Positions 7,978 to 20,198 of a stretch of DNA of 64,000 nt are shown piece after piece. The notes below the pieces were generated by a model that saw only the letters and a list, made by a program, of their open reading frames with translations, searched no databases and was not told the origin of the DNA. Source of the DNA: Lachnospiraceae bacterium (lineage in GTDB: Bacteria > Bacillota > Clostridia > Lachnospirales > Lachnospiraceae); contig JALEPL010000031.1 of assembly GCA_022766245.1 (NCBI GenBank), positions 4,336-68,335 of the forward strand. The letters run 5' to 3'. The translations under genes were made by a program, and so were the position numbers. The stretch's first letter is position 1, and each line of letters starts with the position of its first letter.

Positions 7978-9342
7978 TTACTTTCTTCTTTTCCTGCGTT
8001 TCTTCTTCTGCGTCTGAATCCTATGGTATTTTCTTTTTCGCATCTCACTGTGAGAAATGTGCTTTCTCTGGTTCGCACGATACCACTGAAGAAACCTCCA
8101 GCCACCGTAGGCTGCACCTGACACAACAACAAGAGCCAGCAATATAATGCCCATTATTCTGACAAAAACTCCTGTCTTTTTTCCCGACTGTTTGGGACTT
8201 TCCACTTCCTCCATGACTTCAGATGATTCTTCTGCCCTGACAATTGTAACATCTGCCCCGCCAATTTCATGCGACGCATAGGTATACCCCAGAAAAGCAA
8301 TCTCGTCATTCTCTCCACTTTGTTCTTTCAGCGCTGCGGTTGCATCGGCAAATGATGCCGTCTTCGGCAATACAATGCATCCCGTTTGATCCAGCACCAC
8401 GGTATCCTCTGTTCCGGACGCATATAGTTCCTGCAGCTTTTGTTCTGTATAATACGCCTCATTCTCAGAAACATTCCACAACTGAAAATTTTCAAAAGCG
8501 GCATCAAACAGCACTGTTGTGTCCTTATACTGCATCGTTGTCTTTTCATTCAACACAACGCAAATTAAATCCATCCCATCCCGCGATGCATATGTCACCA
8601 GGGTATTTTTTGCAACATCGGTATACCCTGTCTTGCCCCCGATACATCCCTCGTACAAATACTCTGTCCCCTTGTATGAACTGAACATCTGATGATGATT
8701 CCTCAGAAAAGTTTCCTCTTCATGCTTATTGGTGGGTGGAATCGTGTATTTCTGCGTACCTATAATCGTTCGAAAGGTATCATATTTCAACGCTTCTCTG
8801 GAAATGAGTGCCATATCATAGGCGCTGGTATAATGATTCTCATCCGGCAGACCATGGGGATTTGTAAAATGAGTATTCTCGCATCCCAGTTCTTTTGCCC
8901 TGTCATTCATCATCTGGATAAAGGTATCATAATCCCCACCCACATGTTCTGCAATCGCATACGCACACTCATTTGCAGATACCAGCATCAGTGCGTACAG
9001 GCACTGCTCCATAGTCATAACCTCATCCAGATCTCTGGCGATATGAGCCCCATCTACACCATAGACCGCATTGGCAGAAAAAACCACCTCTTCATCCATA
9101 TCACAGTTCTCTATAGCCAGCAGTGCCGTCATAATCTTGGTAATACTGGCGGGATAGAGTTCCTCATGTGCGTTTTTCTCGTACAGTACAGTTCCAGTGG
9201 AAGCCTCCATCACAATGGCTGAGGGACCATCGATGGCCGGCCCGGTGGGCCAGACATCTTCTGCCCGAACCTGCATCACATTTGTCTGCATCAGATATAC
9301 CATCAGAAGCAGCAAACATTTCCATGCTTTCACTTTGTTCAT
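7978..9342 (-). CDS. D-alanyl-D-alanine carboxypeptidase (peptidase S11) with C-terminal membrane anchor
   Basis: Signal peptide (start MNKVKAWK at 9342), PASITK (SxxK), SAN (SxN), GGKTG (KTG), C-terminal TM helix and K/R-rich tail. Confidence 0.92.
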   Translation of the reverse strand: MNKVKAWKCLLLLMVYLMQTNVMQVRAEDVWPTGPAIDGPSAIVMEASTGTVLYEKNAHEELYPASITKIMTALLAIENCDMDEEVVFSANAVYGVDGAHIARDLDEVMTMEQCLYALMLVSANECAYAIAEHVGGDYDTFIQMMNDRAKELGCENTHFTNPHGLPDENHYTSAYDMALISREALKYDTFRTIIGTQKYTIPPTNKHEEETFLRNHHQMFSSYKGTEYLYEGCIGGKTGYTDVAKNTLVTYASRDGMDLICVVLNEKTTMQYKDTTVLFDAAFENFQLWNVSENEAYYTEQKLQELYASGTEDTVVLDQTGCIVLPKTASFADATAALKEQSGENDEIAFLGYTYASHEIGGADVTIVRAEESSEVMEEVESPKQSGKKTGVFVRIMGIILLALVVVSGAAYGGWRFLQWYRANQRKHISHSEMRKRKYHRIQTQKKKRRKRRK

Positions 9343-9360
9343 CTTATTCCCCCATTTATT

Positions 9361-9438
9361 GGCACGAGGTGTCACCGCAGGTGACGGATACGCCCCCAAA
9401 GGTCGCTTCGCGCTGCTTTGGGGACAAAACCTGGTGCC
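9361..9438. repeat. REP-like nested palindromic element
   Basis: Outer arms ggcacgagg/cctggtgcc (8 of 9 complementary) enclose hairpins gtcacc-gca-ggtgac and ccccaaag...ctttgggg. Single copy in the window. Confidence 0.5.
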
Positions 9439-9482
9439 GCTTCAGTTTTCATATCTGACTTTACACTTCCTTTTTACACCAT

Positions 9483-11051
9483 TTATTGTGCAGCTTCCGG
9501 TGTTGTTTCCGGCTGGGTCGCCGGGGATTCCTGTGTCTGAGTCTCCGGAGTTGGCGCTTCCTGAGCCGGAGTTTCCGCAGACGCTGCCAAAGCAGCGTCA
9601 TTCCATGCAGCGATTGCCGCATTTACCGTAGCCTCATCCTGCGTAGCAATTGCTGCATTTACCGCAGCAGATGCATTCGGATCAGCAGAAGCAGTACCAA
9701 CCAGAATCACTTTATCTGATGCCCGGTAACTGCTGGTATTAAACACCTCATTGCTCTCCACTTCCCCATTCACTGTAACGATTTTGCGGAGACGTGCTTT
9801 ATATCCTACATGTTCCGACTGATCCACAGTAGTATATCCGATCGGCTGATCCGGCGCAGCTTGATATACCACACCGGGAGTTGTGGTTGCAAGTACCTCA
9901 CTTACAAATTCCACTTTTCGGTTGCTGTCTCTGGTCTCCTCTCCGTAGACATTAAAATACACATAACCTCCGGAAGTATACCCCTCAATATAGACTGGTG
10001 AATCCAGATTATTCTTAAACTTAAAGTCCTTGTAGGTTCCTGCGATGGCAGCATCCTCCGATGGTTTTACATAGCTGACCGTCATGGAATGCGGGTAGCG
10101 CTCTATAACTTCCAGTTCTGCCCGGATTACCGCATTATACAAAGTAGTGGAAACCTGACAGATTCCGCCTCCTATAGATTCAACCACTTTTCCATTCTCG
10201 TAAGCGCCTCCCACTTCATACCCATTTTCCCGGACAAAAGGACTGGCCACTTCATACACGGAGAACTCATCTCCCGGATATAACAACGCCCCATTTATCT
10301 TAGATGTTCCATTCTGTACATTCTGCTTTCTTCCGGCATTGGAGTTCGCATAAGAAGTACGGAAGCTGCCTAATACATCTTTTACTTTGGACAATTCTTC
10401 TTCTGTATGTTCCGGTTCTACCACATCGGCCACAAGCTCCACGACAGCGCTTTTTCCGTCCCACTCAGATGCAAAGAAAGATTCTACTCCGGCAATGGAG
10501 CTCTCCACATCTACATAGATTCCTTCACTCTCCGGTATGGTAATAAATGCTCCATCTTCCCGCTTCAGCTGGGCATCCTGAACTTCAGAATTCAGAATAT
10601 CTTCGCTGTTTTCAATAAACTTAACAACCTCAGCCTTATCGATTCCGTATTCCAGAGGAAACACTTTATCTTCCCGCTCTAAATCCTTCATGGCCATATA
10701 CCGACTCAGTAGATTTCCCTTTTTGCCGATATAAGCAGCTTCTTTTAACACTTCAGGATTTTGCCAGAAAACTCCCAGTTCACCGGCTTTAGCACTTACT
10801 TCCTTGCTCCCTGCCTTAAACGTGATCTTTTCATTTCCTATCTCATCAAAATACTCTTCCACTGCCTGGGACGCTTCTTCCTGTGTCATACCACCCACGG
10901 GGATTTCACCAATAAACACACGTTCCGGTATCAGCGCATCTTGTGATTCCTCCGCACGTGCAGAAATCCCCATACAGGATCCCAGCGCCAGGCCGCAAAG
11001 GATAACTCCAGTTACCAGATACTTTTTCTTAATTTTTTTCATAGCAGCCAC
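9483..11051 (-). CDS. VanW-family cell-wall protein (PG-binding region + VanW domain + G5-like tail)
   Basis: Signal peptide, GRKQNVQNGTSKINGALLYPGDEFS, IGGGICQVSTTLYNA, ERYPHS, DAAIA, DFKFKNN; P/E/T/A-rich C-terminus. Confidence 0.88.
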   Translation of the reverse strand: MAAMKKIKKKYLVTGVILCGLALGSCMGISARAEESQDALIPERVFIGEIPVGGMTQEEASQAVEEYFDEIGNEKITFKAGSKEVSAKAGELGVFWQNPEVLKEAAYIGKKGNLLSRYMAMKDLEREDKVFPLEYGIDKAEVVKFIENSEDILNSEVQDAQLKREDGAFITIPESEGIYVDVESSIAGVESFFASEWDGKSAVVELVADVVEPEHTEEELSKVKDVLGSFRTSYANSNAGRKQNVQNGTSKINGALLYPGDEFSVYEVASPFVRENGYEVGGAYENGKVVESIGGGICQVSTTLYNAVIRAELEVIERYPHSMTVSYVKPSEDAAIAGTYKDFKFKNNLDSPVYIEGYTSGGYVYFNVYGEETRDSNRKVEFVSEVLATTTPGVVYQAAPDQPIGYTTVDQSEHVGYKARLRKIVTVNGEVESNEVFNTSSYRASDKVILVGTASADPNASAAVNAAIATQDEATVNAAIAAWNDAALAASAETPAQEAPTPETQTQESPATQPETTPEAAQ

Positions 11052-11091: not shown

Positions 11092-12930
11092 CTAAATGGA
11101 AAGCGAATACTGTTCGCACAACATAGTTACTGTCATAACAATCATAAGATAATCAATTTCATAAGCACCCATCAGTTTGAAATCACTCTGACTATATATT
11201 TTTTTCATCTTATTCACGTAATCTACATCAAATACACCGTATTTTTTTATCAATGAATCACTCAGGAATTCCTCTCCACCGCTCTGTTTTACCATAGCAG
11301 ACATTCCAGGTGCCTGAAACGGGAATTTTTTTCGTTTTAAGATTTCCTGAGGAACGATTCCTTCTGTAGCTTTTTTAATGATATATTTCTCATTGGTTCC
11401 TTTAAGCTTGTATTTGTCCGGTATGGTCAGCACAAAGGAAATCAATTCGGTATCCAGGAACGGATGTCTTCCCTCTACAGAATGTGAGAAAAACATTCGA
11501 TCGCCATGCTCTCCCAGCAAATGATCAGACAAACGAAGCTTGTAATCAATATAGGATCGTCTCTTAAAGGTGCTTAAGCCTTTTACCCGTTCCAGATTAA
11601 TGGGGCTTGTGGCAAACGCTGAGAACTGATCAATCTCCCCCCGCACATTGTCACTGTATATCTGGGTATGTATCTTTCTGATTTCAGGGTGGTTCCGCTC
11701 ATAACGGAAATAGGGATCTCCCCATAATCGTTCATTCACTTCGCACTCTTCTGCAGACATCTGATTCTTCTGCATATTTCGAAACAGATCCACCATGTAG
11801 CCGGCATATCCGTAAAAGAATTCATCGGATCCCTGACCGGTCAGAACTGCCTTTGCCGGTGATGTGCTCACCAGCTCAGACAAAAGATACGCTGCAACGT
11901 CATAGCTTTCCTTGACTGCAGACTCTGCATGATAGATTACATTCGGTATATTCTTCCAGATTTCTTTTTCTGTCACTCTGGTACTGTAATGAGTAGAATT
12001 CACATATTCACAAATAATCTTCTGGAATTGCTGCTCATTCAGATCACCGGAATCTATCTCTGCCGAAAAAGAATAATAACTGTTTAGCAGATATTTTCCA
12101 ATGTAACAAGCCACAACCGAACTGTCCAAGCCACCGGAAATATAAAATCCGATGGGCACATCTGCAATCAGTCTTCTGGAAATGGCATTCTTCAATAATT
12201 CCCGAAGCTTCTCTGCATAGTACTCCTCGCCCTTATCCTCTTCCTCAGCACTGTAAATAACATCCCAGTATTCTATATTTCTTATTTCCTGTCCTGCCAC
12301 TGCCTGAATCATATGGCCACATTCCAGAGAGTAAATTCCATCGAAAAAAGTATTGGGAGAAACCACACCGGGGAAATTCATCAGCTGATCCACAGCCTTC
12401 AGATTCAGTTTTCTGCTGGCACCGGGATACTCCAGGATTGCCTTAATCTCGGATGCAAACACCAGTTTATCATTAATCTGGCTGTAAAACAATGGACAAA
12501 TCCCCACATGATCTCTCACCAAAAGTAACTGATTGATTTTCTCATCATACAAGGCAATGGCAAACTGACCATTCAGCATCTTCGGGAAATCCATTCCCTC
12601 CTCTTCATACAGATGAAGAATAACCTCCACATCGGTTTTCGTGCGGAACACATGTCCCTTCGCAATCAAATCATCCCGAAGCTCCTGAAAGTTAAAGATT
12701 TCTCCATTACATATCATGGATATCGTCTTGTCCTCGTTTTGAATAGGCTGCATACCTCCATCCAAATCCAGAAAGCTGAGGCGATTAAAGCCTAAGGTAA
12801 TCTGCTTTAATTCCAAAGTCTGACTTCCATCCGGCCCACGATGGCGGATGGCACGAAGCATCCGTTCCACAATGTCCTTCTCTGGCTGTGTTTTCTTATT
12901 CAAACTATAAATTCCACAGATTCCACACAT
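11092..12930 (-). CDS. asnB: Asparagine synthase (glutamine-hydrolysing), AsnB family
   Basis: Ntn start MCGICG, HRGPD, CNGEIFNF, ISGGLDSS, LTGQGSDE, SVEGRHPFLD. Confidence 0.93.
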   Translation of the reverse strand: MCGICGIYSLNKKTQPEKDIVERMLRAIRHRGPDGSQTLELKQITLGFNRLSFLDLDGGMQPIQNEDKTISMICNGEIFNFQELRDDLIAKGHVFRTKTDVEVILHLYEEEGMDFPKMLNGQFAIALYDEKINQLLLVRDHVGICPLFYSQINDKLVFASEIKAILEYPGASRKLNLKAVDQLMNFPGVVSPNTFFDGIYSLECGHMIQAVAGQEIRNIEYWDVIYSAEEEDKGEEYYAEKLRELLKNAISRRLIADVPIGFYISGGLDSSVVACYIGKYLLNSYYSFSAEIDSGDLNEQQFQKIICEYVNSTHYSTRVTEKEIWKNIPNVIYHAESAVKESYDVAAYLLSELVSTSPAKAVLTGQGSDEFFYGYAGYMVDLFRNMQKNQMSAEECEVNERLWGDPYFRYERNHPEIRKIHTQIYSDNVRGEIDQFSAFATSPINLERVKGLSTFKRRSYIDYKLRLSDHLLGEHGDRMFFSHSVEGRHPFLDTELISFVLTIPDKYKLKGTNEKYIIKKATEGIVPQEILKRKKFPFQAPGMSAMVKQSGGEEFLSDSLIKKYGVFDVDYVNKMKKIYSQSDFKLMGAYEIDYLMIVMTVTMLCEQYSLSI

Positions 12931-12931
12931 T

Positions 12932-13996
12932 TTAGTTCTCCTCTTCTATCCCGTAATATTCATACTGAGCCTGCTTTTCCGCCTCGTATGCTGCGATCTT
13001 TTCCTTCCAGATTTCACACAAATGCTCCTCATTCCGCCGATCCGGCAATCCCACATCCTCTGATAAGTATTTGCCCAGATAACCGGAAAGCTTTTCTGCT
13101 CCCGAAAGGTTCATGTGAAGTCCGGCATCATATGTATCCGTACTATAATCAATTCCAATCTCATCTGTGAGCTCCAGGAAATTAATATACTCCAAATTAT
13201 GAGCTGCCGCATAGTCTTCTACCTGAGCCTCATATTCATCATACCAATACGGATAAAGACTGGGTGCCTTAATCAAAATAAGTCTGATTCCATTCTCTTC
13301 ACAAAGCGCTGTCATCATATCAAGATATTTCCATGCATTGTCACCAAAACTGTAATCTGCCAGGACCTTTCCATCCGGCACATTTTCTGCAGGTTTCACA
13401 TCCACACGCATATAGTACCCGTTATGGGTCACCTGTTTTTTTCGGAACATGTAGGTTACATCCGTTGCAGAAAGATCACTCCATCTGGTATGATATCGCA
13501 AAATAGGAAATACATAATCGAGGAAATGCTCTTCTTCTTTCATGGATGCCTGAATCGCTTTTATTTTGGAAGGCGACCACTTCATCCCCTCCAATGTCAT
13601 ACGGTTATAGGCCTCACTCTGGGACTCATTAAATTGCAGAGACTGTACATTAAAAATTACCACATCCGGCGTCTCATATCGAAGTGTGTCCTCCAGCATA
13701 TAATAAGACTGCCAGATATACTGCTCCGCACTTCCTCTGATATAGCTGTTGATTCCGTAATCTTCCCACAATACGATGGGCGAGAAATTCTCGTAAACCT
13801 CACAGTCACCTACAAAGATCACATCAAAATCCTTCTCCTGCTGGTAGTACTCTTCGATGAAAGCACCTTCTACCACTCCATCTACATACTTGGGAACAAG
13901 CAGTCTCTGTAAAAGAAATAGACTTGTCACCACCACCAATGCGGACAGAATAAATTTTATACATGCTCGTTTTTTTAACTTTCCTTTCATATCCAC
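12932..13996 (-). CDS. Membrane-anchored SGNH/GDSL-like (DltD/AlgJ/PatB-like) acyltransferase with Cys at the nucleophile position
   Basis: N-terminal TM helix; block I DVIFVGDCE (TGT codon at 13804-13802); block V YDAGLHMNLSGA; directly downstream of an MBOAT gene. Confidence 0.72.
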   Translation of the reverse strand: MDMKGKLKKRACIKFILSALVVVTSLFLLQRLLVPKYVDGVVEGAFIEEYYQQEKDFDVIFVGDCEVYENFSPIVLWEDYGINSYIRGSAEQYIWQSYYMLEDTLRYETPDVVIFNVQSLQFNESQSEAYNRMTLEGMKWSPSKIKAIQASMKEEEHFLDYVFPILRYHTRWSDLSATDVTYMFRKKQVTHNGYYMRVDVKPAENVPDGKVLADYSFGDNAWKYLDMMTALCEENGIRLILIKAPSLYPYWYDEYEAQVEDYAAAHNLEYINFLELTDEIGIDYSTDTYDAGLHMNLSGAEKLSGYLGKYLSEDVGLPDRRNEEHLCEIWKEKIAAYEAEKQAQYEYYGIEEEN

Positions 13997-14016
13997 CTGT
14001 TCCCTTAACCCATAAT

Positions 14017-15609
14017 CTAAAACTGATTATAAATGAACTGACTGGCATCATATCCGATACCATAGGCTCCCATCAAAAGTATCACTAAAAACAAACCATA
14101 CCATATGCAAACCCGCACCGGATATGCCTGCGCAGCAATTCTGTCTCTGACACTTCCCCGACGCTGGAGCAGACTAACTCCGAGAAGTACCATCACTCCC
14201 ATTGCTAAAATCACATAATCCAAGGCTGTAAGTCCCAGATTCATCAAGGAACCATCCCACAGGATATGCCAGTTCCCAACAGTAAACATGGACGCCAGCA
14301 TGCCAAAGGTAGTTGACAGAGCAGAATAACAGTCAAAAATATTCAGCACACACACCAGCAAAAAGGTACGTCCAATCTGAAACACTTTGTACCAGTTTTT
14401 TTCTTCAACCGGGAAACGATTGTGAAACTTTGCATAAAGAGGTTCCAGTTCCTCCGAAATCATCAATACTGCCCAGTTCAGCAATCCCCATACAATAAAA
14501 TTCCAATTGGCACCATGCCAGATTCCTGTTGCAAACCAAACCACGAAAGAAGACAGGTACAACGGAAGACGCCGTCCCACCACCTTGCCAAAATGTTTTG
14601 CAGAAAACTTAGAAAATTTCTGCATCGCCTTACAGGTAGATACCGGATAAAAGAGATAATCTCTAAACCAACTACACATGGTAATATGCCAACGACGCCA
14701 GTATTCTTTCAATGATTTTGAGAAATATGGCCGGTTAAAGTTCTCCTGCACTGTAATTCCCATAGTCTCGGCAATACCAATGGTAATATCGATTCCTCCG
14801 GTAAAATCTGCGTACAGTTCCAAAGTATAGAACAACATACCCACAAATATGTACGCACCATTATATGTCGCTGTATCCTTGATTATCGTATTCACAGCCA
14901 CAAGAATCCGATCTGCAATTACCATCTTTTTGAAATAACCCCAGAGAATTCGCTGCAGACCATAGCAGACTTTTTTGCTGTCAAAAGCATGCTCCTCATA
15001 GAGTGTCTTGCTCAAATCCGAAAAACGGCTGATTGGTCCCTGGATCAGCTGCGGGAAAAACGACACAAACAAAGCAAATTTGAATACATTTTTCTCGGCC
15101 GGATATGCCCCACGATATACATCGATGAGATATCCCACCGCCTGAAACGTATAAAAAGAGATTCCCAGCGGCAATGCCAGCGTAAGGTAAGAAAGCTGTC
15201 TGGTCTGATGGAACATGGACAGCACACCATTTACGTTGTCAATCATAAAATTAGAATACTTCACCACCGCAAGGATGCCGATATTCAAAATAATGCAGGC
15301 TGCGACCCATCTCATACGGATCTTTTTCTGCTTATCCTTATAATTCTTTTTTTCTTCTTTTGATAACTCCGCCTTATGTTCTTTTATGTATTTGCTTTGA
15401 TTATTTGCATTCGATTCTATCTTACGTGCCGTCAGATAAGTAGTCAGCGTAGTCACCAGAATATAGATTAAATATTCCGGTCCGGCTATAAAATAAAAAA
15501 CATAGCTGGCCACTAATAAAAGTGGCCACTGACATTTCTTGGGAATAAGATAATAAACTACAAATAAGATTAAAATAAAGCCTAAGAACTCATATGATGT
15601 AAAGAGCAT
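14017..15609 (-). CDS. MBOAT family acyltransferase (DltB/AlgI/PatA-like) with fused DltX-like tail
   Basis: LPLGISFYTFQ, FFPQLIQGPI, ENFNRPY, EYWRRWHIT, catalytic His in TGIWHGA, C-terminal FIYNQF. Confidence 0.95.
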   Translation of the reverse strand: MLFTSYEFLGFILILFVVYYLIPKKCQWPLLLVASYVFYFIAGPEYLIYILVTTLTTYLTARKIESNANNQSKYIKEHKAELSKEEKKNYKDKQKKIRMRWVAACIILNIGILAVVKYSNFMIDNVNGVLSMFHQTRQLSYLTLALPLGISFYTFQAVGYLIDVYRGAYPAEKNVFKFALFVSFFPQLIQGPISRFSDLSKTLYEEHAFDSKKVCYGLQRILWGYFKKMVIADRILVAVNTIIKDTATYNGAYIFVGMLFYTLELYADFTGGIDITIGIAETMGITVQENFNRPYFSKSLKEYWRRWHITMCSWFRDYLFYPVSTCKAMQKFSKFSAKHFGKVVGRRLPLYLSSFVVWFATGIWHGANWNFIVWGLLNWAVLMISEELEPLYAKFHNRFPVEEKNWYKVFQIGRTFLLVCVLNIFDCYSALSTTFGMLASMFTVGNWHILWDGSLMNLGLTALDYVILAMGVMVLLGVSLLQRRGSVRDRIAAQAYPVRVCIWYGLFLVILLMGAYGIGYDASQFIYNQF

Positions 15610-15635
15610 ACTCTAATTCCTTAATTTCATCTAAA

Positions 15636-16232
15636 TTAATTCAAAACAGGGGAATCGTACTCAATAGATGCGATATCCTCACCATTCAGAATGAAACACA
15701 GTTTTGTACCATTATTTTCATAGGTAATGCTTTTATCTGTTTCCTGATAATCAGAGCCGTAAGCGGCAATAATATCATCCTTTGTCATGGACAAATCGAT
15801 TCCCTCAGGAGTTGACACACTGTCATCCTTTAAAATAATGGATGCAATCAAATCCTGTTCTCCATCCGGATAAGTCTCAATCTGGAAACCGGAATAGGTA
15901 TAAATCTTAGCAATTCCCTGTGCGGCACAGCTGGGCTGCTCAAAATAGCTGTCCGGCTCTCCTAATGCATCCACGATACTACTCATATCCATGTCTACAG
16001 CAATTTCAACACCATTGCTTTCAAACACAAAGCCTGAAGCGATCTCTGCATCTGCCTCTGCATCATCTGCCACTGCGTCATCTGCTGCTGTATTCTCTGT
16101 AGAAGTCTCCACACTGCTATCCGTGACATTGCTGTCTGCCTGGGTAGCACCATCAGACCCACAACCAGCCAGCATACACATACCTAATACACATACACAT
16201 GCAAGCGTATTTTTTACTCCTCTGTACTTCAT
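15636..16232 (-). CDS. Lipoprotein of unknown function
   Basis: Lipobox LAG-C, acidic low-complexity linker, compact domain with IVDALGEP and LSMTKDDIIAAYG motifs. Confidence 0.75.
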   Translation of the reverse strand: MKYRGVKNTLACVCVLGMCMLAGCGSDGATQADSNVTDSSVETSTENTAADDAVADDAEADAEIASGFVFESNGVEIAVDMDMSSIVDALGEPDSYFEQPSCAAQGIAKIYTYSGFQIETYPDGEQDLIASIILKDDSVSTPEGIDLSMTKDDIIAAYGSDYQETDKSITYENNGTKLCFILNGEDIASIEYDSPVLN

Positions 16233-16266
16233 CTTTTCCTACCTTTCTTCCCGATACCGTCAACAA

Positions 16267-16509
16267 TTAGTCCTCGTCCATCAGACTGCTGATTAACTCG
16301 CACAGTGCATCCAGCGAATTAAAGTTTTCCGGAACAATCTTGTCCGCTGAAATCACCACATCAAACTCATCGTTAATGTCTGATATCAGTGTGACAATGT
16401 CAAAAGAATCCAGCACCTTGCCGTCAACCAGTTCGGTACAGTTCTCAAAGTCCTCATCCGGATGTAATCCCTCTAAAATCTCTAATAATGTGCTTCTAAT
16501 TTCTTCCAT
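16267..16509 (-). CDS. Acyl/aminoacyl carrier protein (DltC-like)
   Basis: 80 aa, highly acidic, phosphopantetheine site in VLDSFDIV, PENFNSLDAL; overlaps the upstream adenylation gene by 14 bp. Confidence 0.92.
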   Translation of the reverse strand: MEEIRSTLLEILEGLHPDEDFENCTELVDGKVLDSFDIVTLISDINDEFDVVISADKIVPENFNSLDALCELISSLMDED

Positions 16510-18016
16510 TTTTTTTCTCTCCCTTGTACATATTTTTTAATAAAACGCGATTGATTTTTCCATTCGCGGTGAATGGCATTTCTTCTAACTGTTCCACATG
16601 ATTCGGTATCATGTAACGAGGAAGCATGCTTTTCAGCTTCGTAACCAATTCCCTAGATGTAATATTACCTACATAGTACAATACAATCTTGCCCTTTTCT
16701 CCATCATAAACACAGCAACAAAGCTTAATTTCCTCAATTGTATTCACATTAGCCTCTATCTCACCAAGCTCAATTCGATGTCCCATGTGCTTAATCTGGT
16801 AATCCTTTCTGGACACAAACACAAGCTCACCATACTCATTATACTTTCCAATATCACCTGTCCGGTAAATAATTTCCGGATATGCCGTATTTAAAGGATT
16901 CTGTACAAAAGCCTCGGATGTTTTCTGTGGGTTGTTGTAATATCCCAGAGTAACTGCGGTTCCACGGATACAGATTTCTCCCTCATTTGCCAGCTTATTC
17001 TCCTCATCCAATAGCAGAATCTCTGTATTTTGAAATGGTCTTCCGATGGGAATCGGCTCATTCTCCTGCAATTCCCGTTCCAAGCGGTAATAACAGCACA
17101 TACCGGTACCCTCGGTAGGACCGTACAGATTCACAAAGGATGCCTCCGGCAATGCCTCTCTCCAGATTCGGTACTGCTTAATCGGAAATACTTCACTTCC
17201 AAACGCAATGGTCTTCAGATATTCCGGTTTGACCATCTGGAAGGTTCCAAAGGCCGATATCATGGTCAATGCTGACACAACCCAGCATATGGTATTTACC
17301 TTATGTTCATTTAAAAACTCTACCAGCTTAGCCGGGAACATAAATAAACTCTTTGGCACAATATAGGTGGTAGCGCCAAACTTCAGAGTCGGATAGATTT
17401 CCTTTAAGCACGCATCAAAATACAACGGGGTCTGATTTGCAAATACAGTATCCTCATTAAACTGCAGAACCTCGGACAACTGCTCAATATAGTCAATGAC
17501 TGACCGATGACAGGCTACAACCCCCTTGGGTACTCCGGTAGAACCAGAAGTGAATACAATGTATATCGGATCTATATCCAGAGCATTTTTTCTGATTACG
17601 TCCAATGCCTTTGCATCCTCCGGTGTTTTGATAATTTCATCATACAGGCAAATCTCACCCTGATAATGGAAGGTCTCTGCTTTTTTCTTTGTATTTTCGT
17701 CACATATAATCAGTTCTGCCTTACAATTCTCCAGAATCAAATCAATTCTGCTCTGAGGCATTTCCTCATCAATGGGCACATAAAAGCATCCTGACGTAAT
17801 AACACCTAAAAACGCAATGATAGTTTTGGGATGTTTCTCCATAAAAACCACCACCGGTTTTCTGTATAGCCCCTTCTCATGAATATACGTACCAATGGAA
17901 TGACTCTGCTCATAAACCTGCGCAAAAGTATAGCCTTCCTTTTCGTTGGCATATGCCACTTTATCCGGCACCCTTTTCACAATCGCATCCAAATAGGACA
18001 AAACATTATTTTCCAT
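16496..18016 (-). CDS. Stand-alone amino-acid adenylation enzyme (DltA-like fold, pocket not D-Ala-like)
   Basis: FTSGSTGVPKGV (A3), YFDACL (A4), NLYGPTE (A5), YRTGD (A7), GHRIELGEIE (A8), TANGKINR (A10). Confidence 0.93.
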   Translation of the reverse strand: MENNVLSYLDAIVKRVPDKVAYANEKEGYTFAQVYEQSHSIGTYIHEKGLYRKPVVVFMEKHPKTIIAFLGVITSGCFYVPIDEEMPQSRIDLILENCKAELIICDENTKKKAETFHYQGEICLYDEIIKTPEDAKALDVIRKNALDIDPIYIVFTSGSTGVPKGVVACHRSVIDYIEQLSEVLQFNEDTVFANQTPLYFDACLKEIYPTLKFGATTYIVPKSLFMFPAKLVEFLNEHKVNTICWVVSALTMISAFGTFQMVKPEYLKTIAFGSEVFPIKQYRIWREALPEASFVNLYGPTEGTGMCCYYRLERELQENEPIPIGRPFQNTEILLLDEENKLANEGEICIRGTAVTLGYYNNPQKTSEAFVQNPLNTAYPEIIYRTGDIGKYNEYGELVFVSRKDYQIKHMGHRIELGEIEANVNTIEEIKLCCCVYDGEKGKIVLYYVGNITSRELVTKLKSMLPRYMIPNHVEQLEEMPFTANGKINRVLLKNMYKGEKKNGRN

Positions 18017-18045
18017 GTTAATCTCCAGCTTTCTGTATTAGTTTC

Positions 18046-18771
18046 TTACCTCGTGATCAGTTGATGATACTCCTCTTTCAACGTACCGCATAACTCCACG
18101 GAACATTTTGCCAAAACCTGCATTGCATCCAGATATCCTGCCCCGATTTGTTCATCTCTTCTTATCATGGAAAGCTCGGTACAGCCCAAAACAATTACCT
18201 GAGCCCCCTTTTGCCGCAATTCCTCCGACACCCGTTGAAACCGGTCCATTTCAGCAGGTTTTGTGGCCTTCACATTCTGATAAATCAGATGCATCACATC
18301 TTTCTGCCCATGTTCTTCCGGCAGAATCACTTCGATATTTCTAGCCTGCAGCGACTTTTGAAACAAACCGCTCTGTACGGTTCCATCTGTGGCCATAAGT
18401 CCCACTCTTTTAACATTTTGTATTTCTAAATAATTCGTGGTCTCTTCAATGATATTGATGATGGGTGCCGGAATCTCCCTAGACAACTCATCATAAAAAT
18501 AACTGGCAGTAATACAGGGAATGGCAATTACTTCTGCACCATAATCCACCAGATGTTTTCCCACTTCCACCATGGGAACTTTTGGATTCTCGCTGCTATG
18601 CCCCACAATATAACTGGTTCTATCGGGGATAGACGGACAATTATGTATCATCATCTCAATATGTTCCTGGTCCGTATCCGCCTTTGTCATTTCAATCACC
18701 ATCTGCATGAAAAAAGCCGTTGCCATAGGCCCCAGGCCGCCAATCACACCCAATGTATGCATTCTAAACAC
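18046..18771 (-). CDS. Aspartate/glutamate-type amino-acid racemase
   Basis: LGVIGGLGPMAT, PDRT, two catalytic Cys in IAIPCITA and LGCTELS. Start may be MHTL at 18762. Confidence 0.9.
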   Translation of the reverse strand: MFRMHTLGVIGGLGPMATAFFMQMVIEMTKADTDQEHIEMMIHNCPSIPDRTSYIVGHSSENPKVPMVEVGKHLVDYGAEVIAIPCITASYFYDELSREIPAPIINIIEETTNYLEIQNVKRVGLMATDGTVQSGLFQKSLQARNIEVILPEEHGQKDVMHLIYQNVKATKPAEMDRFQRVSEELRQKGAQVIVLGCTELSMIRRDEQIGAGYLDAMQVLAKCSVELCGTLKEEYHQLITR

Positions 18772-18797
18772 CTTCCTATAATCAAACCAAACAGACT

Positions 18798-20198
18798 TTA
18801 TTGTATCGTAGGATATGCGGACGGATCATAGGCATGGCTTCCGTTATGTGTATTGGAATATGCCATAATCTCTTCATCCGAACAATAGAAGAATGTCTTT
18901 CCATCTACTCTTCTGGTGCAATCGAAGTGATACCAGCCCTCTCCCAAATCAATCAGATTCCAATAATGGGTTCGCCGTGGATTAGAAAAACCAATATCCA
19001 TATTATTAATTCCTGCTCTGGTCAATAAGCACTTTGATGTGGATGCATACACAAAACAATCACCCTTCTGGTAAAACAGTCCACGATAAGCTCCCTGTAC
19101 CCAGTTTGTTTTGGGTGTCCCATCCGACCAACCCACATGACTGTTTACCCAGTTAAATATCGCTTTTGCTTTATCATACTGGCTCATTTCCGGAGTTGTA
19201 ATCTGTGCCAGTACCTCATCAGCCTTCGCATTAACAATTTCCTCCGTGGCAGTTTCCACCCCTGCAGGTTTCACATGAACCTTGGTGGATTCTTCCGTCA
19301 CATTTCCCGCTGCATCCTTGGCAATATATGTAACATTATAATCTCCCACCTTGTTCAGATCCACTTCACTGCTATCGATTGTAAGCTGCACATTCTCATC
19401 ATAGTCATCCGTTACCGTTACATTCTTCTTATAGGATATGCTGCCACCCACAGCAACAGACAATTCCTTTACTCCCTCTATAACCGGAGGTTCCGTGTCT
19501 TCCAACACATCCATCACCGTACAGACCTTAACCGTATTTCCACCCTCATCTGTCACATACAATGAAACCGCCTGCTTTCCGGCAGCTGAAAAATCCGGCG
19601 TTTCCACGAACTCTGCCATCGTTGCTGTCACATCTTCGACTGTCTCAATAAAATCATCCGGCTCCAATACCTCGTCCTTGAAGGTCTGTGCTTCCTTTGC
19701 CTCCACAACAGGTGCGATTGTATCCGTCACATGAAGCAAGGATGTATATTCTTTCCCGGAAATGGTGATTCCAATCTCATAATCAGCCACCGTGTTCAGA
19801 TTCAGTTCATCCTCCCAGGGCTCTGAGAAATCGGCCTCCACATACCCATGTGTCAAAAACTCTGACAGTGCCGGAAAGTTTGCTCCCGCCTCAATTGTAA
19901 TCTCATCCACGACGCCTGGTCGGATAACCAGATACATCACAGCGGCAACCAGAACTATCAGCACAGACTGAGCAAATCTGCTTTTCCCAGCAGAATGCTC
20001 TTTCCGATATCGTTTTATCTTTACATTCGACTTGCTCTTTTTCTGTTTTTTTAATGAATTCTCGTCCGGTTTCGCGCCTGACTGATGTTTCTTTCTATCA
20101 CGCTTTTCCCGTTCACTCTGTTCTCTTTTCTGACGCTTTGCCCTTTTTTTCTTTTTCCGGTCAATGCAGTCATGCATCTCTATTTTTTTATCAATCAT
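18798..20198 (-). CDS. Membrane-anchored protein with Ig-like repeats and a C-terminal transglutaminase-like domain
   Basis: K/R-rich N-terminus, one TM helix, repeats (DTIAPVV / DTEPPVIEG...DDYD...Y.VTY.AKDAAGN), catalytic triad GDC-FVYA / HYWN / YHFD. Confidence 0.85.
   Translation of the reverse strand: MIDKKIEMHDCIDRKKKKRAKRQKREQSEREKRDRKKHQSGAKPDENSLKKQKKSKSNVKIKRYRKEHSAGKSRFAQSVLIVLVAAVMYLVIRPGVVDEITIEAGANFPALSEFLTHGYVEADFSEPWEDELNLNTVADYEIGITISGKEYTSLLHVTDTIAPVVEAKEAQTFKDEVLEPDDFIETVEDVTATMAEFVETPDFSAAGKQAVSLYVTDEGGNTVKVCTVMDVLEDTEPPVIEGVKELSVAVGGSISYKKNVTVTDDYDENVQLTIDSSEVDLNKVGDYNVTYIAKDAAGNVTEESTKVHVKPAGVETATEEIVNAKADEVLAQITTPEMSQYDKAKAIFNWVNSHVGWSDGTPKTNWVQGAYRGLFYQKGDCFVYASTSKCLLTRAGINNMDIGFSNPRRTHYWNLIDLGEGWYHFDCTRRVDGKTFFYCSDEEIMAYSNTHNGSHAYDPSAYPTIQ

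Follow-up and report, generated by a model that had tools for sequence, protein, structure and literature searches.

Which amino acid is loaded by a Dlt-like gene cluster whose adenylation enzyme lacks the hallmarks of DltA? The question is raised by P0001, an enzyme encoded in a 64,000-nucleotide stretch of DNA from a Lachnospiraceae bacterium (the window; GenBank assembly GCA_022766245.1, contig JALEPL010000031.1, positions 4,336 to 68,335 of the forward strand). A preliminary description of this DNA had read the specificity pocket by eye and proposed that D-aspartate or D-glutamate, and not D-alanine, is activated. We propose that P0001 serves as loading enzyme in a Dlt-like, carrier-dependent MBOAT/SGNH envelope-acylation cassette and that its substrate is most likely D-aspartate, not D-alanine, a reading to which we assign a probability of about 0.55. 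A conserved lysine in the pocket and an aspartate-type racemase encoded next to the enzyme together suggest that the envelope of these gut Clostridia bears an undescribed decoration, an acidic D-amino acid that is most likely D-aspartate.

The adenylation enzyme and its pocket code

The gene at the center of the locus is annotated as follows:

16496..18016, minus strand: stand-alone amino-acid adenylation enzyme P0001, 506 aa, with DltA-like architecture (Pfam AMP-binding and AMP-binding_C; TIGR01733)

P0001 belongs to the nonribosomal peptide synthetase (NRPS)-type amino-acid adenylation family, scoring 337.7 bits against the NCBIfam model TIGR01733 (cut-off 317.4) and keeping both Asp235 and Lys517 of GrsA-PheA numbering (D201 and K487, respectively). 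It falls far below the cut-offs of both NCBIfam DltA equivalog models (296.4 versus 559.85 bits and 306.5 versus 476 bits) and is 28.7% identical to BsDltA. No canonical DltA was found in the source assembly (2.44 Mb, 96% complete), where nothing matches BsDltA better than P0001. In the phylogeny, P0001 lies in a radiation of 30 adenylation genes, all stand-alone and many with carrier, MBOAT and SGNH genes next to them, that is sister (SH-like approximate likelihood-ratio test, SH-aLRT, 99) to a separate clade uniting two clostridial DltA sets with Bacillus DltA (SH-aLRT 100). In addition, P0001 has FDACLK where DltA has FDLSVM, and Gly (in AFGSE) in the place of the FCGE gatekeeper Cys, which in B. 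cereus DltA (BcDltA) is C269 and filters for the D-Ala enantiomer (PMC4176424). It is close to certain that P0001 is not a D-Ala-activating DltA, in agreement with the preliminary description.

The pocket residues of P0001 map to the following segments:

17399..17419, minus strand: A4 core FDACLKE; D201, A202 and K205 (codon 17402-17404) correspond to GrsA 235, 236 and 239 (BcDltA and profile alignments)
17285..17287, minus strand: C244, corresponding to GrsA 278, within NTICWVV (three alignment routes)
17192..17206, minus strand: AFGSE; A271 and G273 correspond to GrsA 299 and 301, G273 standing in place of DltA Cys269 of FCGE (gapless BcDltA alignment)
17099..17131, minus strand: A5 core NLYGPTEGTGM; L297, G305 (DltA V301) and M306 correspond to GrsA 322, 330 and 331 (BcDltA and profile alignments)
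16556..16558, minus strand: K487, the A10 lysine (GrsA K517, BcDltA K492; BcDltA and profile alignments)

The resulting ten-residue code, D201, A202, K205, C244, A271, G273, L297, G305, M306 and K487 (DAKCAGLGMK), was obtained by three alignment routes and reproduces exactly the code previously aligned by hand. The five strings on which the hand alignment was based are all present in the 506-residue open reading frame (FDACLK, residues 200-205; TICW, 242-245; IAFGS, 270-274; NLYG, 296-299; EGTGM, 302-306), and the doubt expressed about the positions following 239 proved unfounded. When aligned with hmmalign to a profile of 80 random NRPS adenylation domains together with GrsA and P0001, GrsA gave DAWTIAAICK and P0001 gave DAKCAGLGMK. 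The phmmer alignment to BcDltA has no gap from F200/F196 past G305/V301 and pairs D201 with D197, A202 with L198, K205 with M201, G273 with C269, G305 with V301 and K487 with K492, whereas phmmer alignments to both LgrA adenylation domains placed G273-S274-E275 on the GGD/CGE motif and C244 on the equivalent of GrsA T278. The GrsA-PheA reference was identical to 1AMU at all residues except the second, its positions 235-517 reading DAWTIAAICK, and the BsDltA reference differed from 3E7W at three residues only, none of them in the pocket. An alternative code, DAKCIFLMCK, arose from a MAFFT alignment that included two unrelated window proteins and was rejected in favour of the gapless DltA and profile alignments, its gaps being off by one residue both at the GGE-type motif and just past PTE. 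The substrate of BcDltA is held by D197 at its amino group and by K492 at its carboxylate; the equivalent of the Asp235 ligand named in the preliminary description is retained in P0001 (D201), as is the A10 lysine.

At least 577 species-level genomes have a relative, and the best 80 show 66-83% identity and include Roseburia, Agathobacter, Pseudobutyrivibrio, Acetatifactor and Cuneatibacter. D-A-C-L-K-E, which holds residues 235, 236 and 239, is kept in 80/80 of these orthologues, each from a different species (FDACLKE, once LDACLKE), and the full code is found in all but three, which differ only at position 299. In a sample of 300 Clostridia genomes, orthologues at 55-70% identity are present in several families. 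Two of them, from one subclade, carry FDACLRE, AFVSE and TGIC, that is, Arg239 together with the changes G301V and M331I, which may be compensating. By comparison, among 686 adenylation domains from large NRPSs in a 50%-identity representative library, K239 occurs in only 14 (2.0%) and R239 in 1.2%, and four of the 14 K239 codes are of the Glu type DAKD(I/L)GVV(D/N)K. The code and its conservation were observed directly and, on the sequences compared, the pocket pattern of P0001 is more than chance. One 81%-identical cluster lies on a contig labelled Paludibacteraceae (Bacteroidota; CAVGED010000097.1, locus L001); all other matches are to Lachnospiraceae-type Clostridia, and the label is probably a binning error.

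The adjacent racemase and the gene cluster

The gene immediately upstream of P0001 encodes a racemase:

18046..18771, minus strand: PLP-independent (pyridoxal phosphate-independent) two-cysteine racemase (aspartate-racemase subfamily) whose end is 29 nt upstream of the adenylation gene (Pfam, NCBIfam, 1JFL match)

Its best match in the PDB is the P. horikoshii aspartate racemase 1JFL (170 bits), and it scored 211 bits against TIGR00035 (aspartate racemase; cut-off 93.1) while keeping both catalytic cysteines as well as R48 and K164, which places it in the aspartate racemase subfamily. C82, C194, R48, K164, T84, T124 and T195 (P. horikoshii numbering) are invariant in 76/76 operon racemases; R48 and K164 were reportedly found by Ohtaki in 2008 to bind the beta-carboxylate. 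The racemase gene lies directly upstream of the adenylation gene in approximately 70 of the 80 loci and, among the 300 Clostridia genomes, a homologue was present in 19 of 23 with an orthologue of P0001 versus 49 of 277 without one (odds ratio 22, Fisher, p = 3e-10, uncorrected for phylogeny). This synteny and co-occurrence, both observed directly, bear out the earlier link between the enzyme and the adjacent racemase. In the source genome the operon racemase is the sole gene of the Asp-racemase family, and a separate MurI is also encoded (222.6 bits, cut-off 146.65), a model on which the operon racemase scored only 37.6 bits. Because this MurI means that a dedicated racemase is not needed for D-Glu, the reading tilts to D-Asp.

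The racemase and P0001 are part of a tight run of minus-strand genes (11092-20198) for which Pfam and NCBIfam assignments agree. In the order of transcription, and leaving out the two genes already given, its members are:

18798..20198, minus strand: transglutaminase-like, Ig-domain membrane protein, head of the conserved cluster (Pfam; 80 loci)
16267..16509, minus strand: carrier protein, 80 aa, with the LDSFD serine; the first 14 nt of its gene overlap the adenylation gene (Pfam, NCBIfam)
15636..16232, minus strand: small lipoprotein, conserved cluster member (80 loci)
14017..15609, minus strand: MBOAT, DltB-like but under the DltB cut-off, C-terminus ...QFIYNQF (Pfam, NCBIfam; 80 loci)
12932..13996, minus strand: membrane-anchored SGNH/DltD-like partner (80 loci)
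11092..12930, minus strand: AsnB-type glutamine amidotransferase, accessory cluster member (Pfam, NCBIfam; approximately 12/80 loci)

The context is Dlt-like, in that genes for a carrier protein, for an MBOAT and for an SGNH/DltD partner adjoin that for adenylation, both in the window and in nearly all 80 loci. The MBOAT's C-terminal end (window 14017-14060; ...DASQFIYNQF) carries the FIYxxF hexapeptide that in the Dlt pathway is found on the separate microprotein DltX, and an FIYxxF-bearing MBOAT with a carrier-protein donor is not among the combinations listed in a 2025 Journal of Biological Chemistry paper. Downstream of AsnB, on the same strand, the window encodes a VanW-like protein (PG_binding_4, VanW and G5 domains) and an S11 DD-carboxypeptidase (7978-11051). 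We rejected both as members of the system: across the 80 related loci, the surroundings of the adenylation gene gave no VanW match, and the carboxypeptidase was not searched for there.

AsnB, present in the cluster in approximately 12 of the 80 loci, stays there even in loci with a rearranged gene order. Of 16 genomes with the cluster, only the two that have AsnB inside it have an AsnB orthologue (at least 69% identity); of the other 14, ten gave no match and four only paralogues at 30-35% identity. Since the orthologue is absent from cluster-bearing genomes that lack AsnB in the cluster, a role as housekeeping asparagine synthetase was rejected; AsnB is a cluster-specific accessory gene, and its restriction to the cluster implies that asparagine is made another way in most of these organisms. 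In the source genome (2.44 Mb) the cluster AsnB is the sole gene of its family. A cluster-specific AsnB fits a transferred residue with a free carboxylate.

Weighing the candidate substrates

In the mechanism that we propose, D201 would hold the alpha-amino group of the substrate and K487 its reacting carboxylate, the side chain would enter a pocket wider than that of DltA (L198 to A202, C269 to G273 and V301 to G305), and K205, at position 239, would meet its negative charge. The racemase encoded 29 nt upstream would make D-aspartate from L-aspartate, the aminoacyl-AMP would be passed to the phosphopantetheine arm of the 80-aa carrier from the overlapping next gene, and the MBOAT and SGNH proteins would then pass the aminoacyl group to an envelope acceptor. 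In AsnB-bearing clusters, this window included, the free carboxylate would probably be amidated. We infer the charge pairing of K205, which substrate is used and in which configuration, and everything that follows adenylation. That the substrate is an acidic amino acid appears likely, and that it is D-aspartate specifically would be about an even bet. The acidic part of the earlier proposal is supported by the invariably basic residue 239 and by the racemase link, whereas the choice between Asp and Glu and the D configuration are tentative.

Several observations weigh against D-aspartate, or against an acidic substrate altogether. Three genomes of one genus (G015, G088 and G252) keep the cluster and have no racemase homologue at E <= 1e-15, and the code, read in G015, is the unchanged DAKCAGLGMK; a further genome without the racemase, G185, has the slightly changed code DAKCGGLGVK. 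The racemase subfamily also holds cysteate and broad-specificity racemases. G273 removes the DltA filter and may allow L-forms; because Gly replaces the enantiomer-filter Cys, chirality rests on the racemase alone. An AlphaFold2 model built from 14 close orthologues was weak, with a mean pLDDT (predicted local distance difference test score) of 55 and values below 50 at residues 146-226 and 296-416, which hold most of the code stretch. The Asp code reportedly given by Stachelhaus in 1999, DLTKVGHIGK, uses K278 and H322 rather than K239, and P0001 does not match it, having C at 278 and L at 322. The nearest textbook code is instead that for Glu, which agrees at 5/10 positions. Finally, the preliminary description had held that a lysine deep in the pocket marks Asp- and Glu-activating domains; Glu-type codes with K239 do exist (the 4/14 above), but the rule is not strict, since McyB1 of Nostoc IO-102-I has K239 in its code, DIKNFGAIVK, and incorporates L-Leu (PMC2174460 Table 2).

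The alternative that survives best, although we consider it unlikely, is that K205 binds glutamate as the substrate, either L-Glu or D-Glu supplied by MurI, with the racemase acting on Glu or serving some other role. The Glu code, DAKDLGVVDK (SrfA-A module 1 type), also said to come from Stachelhaus in 1999, shares positions 235, 236, 239, 301 and 517 with P0001, the Glu type accounts for part of the K239 codes in the NRPS sample, and position 239 is located at the far end of the PheA pocket, which suits a longer side chain. Moreover, one genus keeps the code without an Asp-type racemase, and D-Glu is available wherever MurI is present. However, P0001 does not conform to this code beyond the shared lysine and its companions, as positions 278 (C), 299, 322, 330 (G) and 331 (M) all differ; a tightly linked dedicated racemase would be redundant in a genome that already has MurI; and that racemase is closest to aspartate racemase and not to MurI. 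In addition, a cluster-specific amidotransferase of the AsnB family fits an aspartyl-type carboxylate better, amidation of D-isoglutamate in peptidoglycan being carried out by MurT/GatD.

Less likely still is that K205 is a clade-specific structural residue and not a substrate ligand, and that a neutral amino acid is activated. This possibility draws on the K239 domain that incorporates L-Leu (PMC2174460), on the small or hydrophobic nature of the remaining pocket residues (C, A, G, L, G and M) and on the low confidence of the structural model. Nevertheless, the lysine is invariant in the 80 orthologues and is replaced by Arg only, K/R239 is kept across subclades whose partners (the Asp-type racemase and a BtrK-like decarboxylase) act on dicarboxylic amino acids, and burying a lysine without a partner among hydrophobic pocket residues would be unfavourable.

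The racemase also passes the NCBIfam model for the cysteate racemase CuyB (211 bits, cut-off 190), a member of the aspartate-racemase family (PMC11193023), but as a lead to a cysteate racemase this match was rejected because the model is non-discriminating, the genuine P. horikoshii aspartate racemase used as a control scoring higher (250 bits). Another anionic amino acid of the racemase subfamily, such as D-cysteate, whose sulfonate could pair with the lysine, or a beta-substituted aspartate, is a very improbable substrate: no gene of the cluster would serve the synthesis or import of an unusual amino acid, and L-Asp would be the obvious abundant precursor.

Relatives with other pockets and known systems

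Within the radiation that contains P0001, a group of 18 (SH-aLRT 94) has K or R at position 239 in every member and comprises the P0001 family, a clade with the code DVKI(I/M/L)SLCNK, one DCKTAGLVDK gene with a GNAT gene beside it, and one gene with Ile235 and Arg239. The DVK clade (L113, G285:C1; L116, G163:C10; L122, G128:C1) is 42-44% identical to P0001, and in all three of its loci a gene for a PLP decarboxylase (ornithine/diaminopimelate/arginine fold) lies between the adenylation and carrier genes; MBOAT and SGNH genes are present in two (L116 and L122). The PDB matches of this decarboxylase include BtrK, the L-glutamyl-[BtrI ACP (acyl carrier protein)] decarboxylase (93 bits). Since decarboxylation of an amino acid held on a carrier requires a second carboxylate, the substrate in the DVK clade should be dicarboxylic, which lends independent, though indirect, support to the pairing of a basic residue 239 with a carboxylate throughout the K/R239 group. 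The DVK loci may be a system for the transfer of beta-alanyl or gamma-aminobutyryl (GABA-yl) groups to the envelope.

A broader and more doubtful proposal, which we put forward tentatively and as a whole, is that the K/R239 group represents clostridial carrier-dependent MBOAT/SGNH systems that all load a dicarboxylic amino acid and then diversify it with an accessory enzyme. D-Asp would come from a racemase acting before loading, D-Asn or D-isoAsn from amidation of the loaded residue by AsnB, and beta-alanine or GABA from on-carrier decarboxylation by a BtrK-like enzyme, while a GNAT would add an acetyl group. In its extreme form, by analogy with the BtrI and VinL systems, the side-chain carboxyl would be activated, leaving a free alpha-amino-acid head group on the surface. 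If the dicarboxylic reading is true, the K/R239 group would be a combinatorial envelope-aminoacylation toolkit well beyond D-alanylation.

Other relatives differ more widely in their pockets. The locus with the Glu-like code DCKTAGLVDK (L115, G198:C11) continues from the adenylation gene to a GNAT, a carrier, an MBOAT and a 600-aa protein with a C-terminal polysaccharide-deacetylase domain. Elsewhere in the sister radiation, the codes are SM(T/L)Y(L/M)ALDIK, which lacks Asp235, DIFFWALLDK, and DAFFSILVAK, DNFFVALVDK and DNLFMCLDVK in tandem triplets. In the first type (L114, L117, L118 and L120), found beside a carrier protein, an MBOAT and mostly an SGNH gene, FSMS replaces FD at the A4 core, which suggests a substrate without an alpha-amino group, for example a hydroxy acid or other carboxylic acid. 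The tandem codes belong to two or three stand-alone adenylation genes in a row in L124, L125 and L126 (one genus) and in L123; neither a carrier nor an MBOAT gene was found at these four loci in BLAST searches with window proteins over the fetched stretch. Among the DltA enzymes themselves, canonical clostridial genes are 39-41% identical to BsDltA, one set having FDLSVMD, FCGE and NTYGPTE.TV, and a variant clostridial set beside a DltB-like MBOAT (L134, L135 and L136) has FDLSV(T/A/S) and F(V/I)GE, the filter Cys being replaced by Val or Ile.

Among gut and rumen Clostridia, well over 500 species-level genomes carry P0001 and its cluster. Decoration with an acidic or, once amidated, neutral D-amino acid would have a charge logic unlike that of D-Ala, and could alter how sensitive the cells are to cationic peptides, how phages and the host recognize them, and the gut pool of D-Asp. 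The pocket code offers a simple hypothesis that can be tested with two small proteins, and cultured strains exist. We found no paper on such a system in the literature on the code, on dlt-like systems with an aspartate racemase or on D-aspartyl carrier proteins. D-alanylation by Dlt is the sole carrier-dependent MBOAT/SGNH acylation pathway described so far, the other MBOAT/SGNH pathways lacking a carrier protein (2025 mechanistic paper, PMC12148441).

P0001 resembles DltA as a stand-alone ANL enzyme, approximately 500 aa long, in which every core motif is present and the alpha-amino Asp and A10 Lys are kept, in the placement of its gene beside small carrier, MBOAT and SGNH genes, in its gapless alignment to BcDltA through the pocket and as a member of the sister clade. 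It differs in its code, DAKCAGLGMK versus DLMT(L/M)CTVAK, with Met201 replaced by Lys and Cys269 by Gly, and its cluster differs from Dlt in having an Asp-type racemase, the gene order A-C-B-D, an additional lipoprotein and transglutaminase-like protein, and an MBOAT that itself bears FIYxxF where Dlt uses a separate DltX. With the Glu domains of NRPSs (DAKDLGVVDK) P0001 shares D235, A236, K239, G301 and K517, K239 being the proposed partner of the side-chain carboxylate. However, those domains are parts of multimodular synthetases, take L-Glu and differ at positions 278, 299, 322, 330 and 331, whereas P0001 is free-standing and feeds an MBOAT.

The tethering of an acidic amino acid to a small carrier and its processing there are also known from BtrJ/BtrI/BtrK (butirosin) and VinN/VinL/VinO (vicenistatin), and the sister DVK clade follows the same logic with its BtrK-like decarboxylase. 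These are, however, antibiotic pathways without MBOAT export, BtrJ is an ATP-grasp enzyme, and the window cluster has a racemase and not a decarboxylase. Finally, the D-Asp branch of peptidoglycan in Lactococcus and Enterococcus is built by the racemase RacD, the ATP-grasp ligase Aslfm and the amidotransferase AsnH. The two systems are alike in that an Asp-type racemase supplies, or in our case would supply, D-Asp for the envelope and an enzyme of the AsnB family amidates it in some lineages. They differ in that the ligase adds D-Asp to a lipid-linked precursor in the cytoplasm, whereas the window cluster implies transfer outside the membrane.

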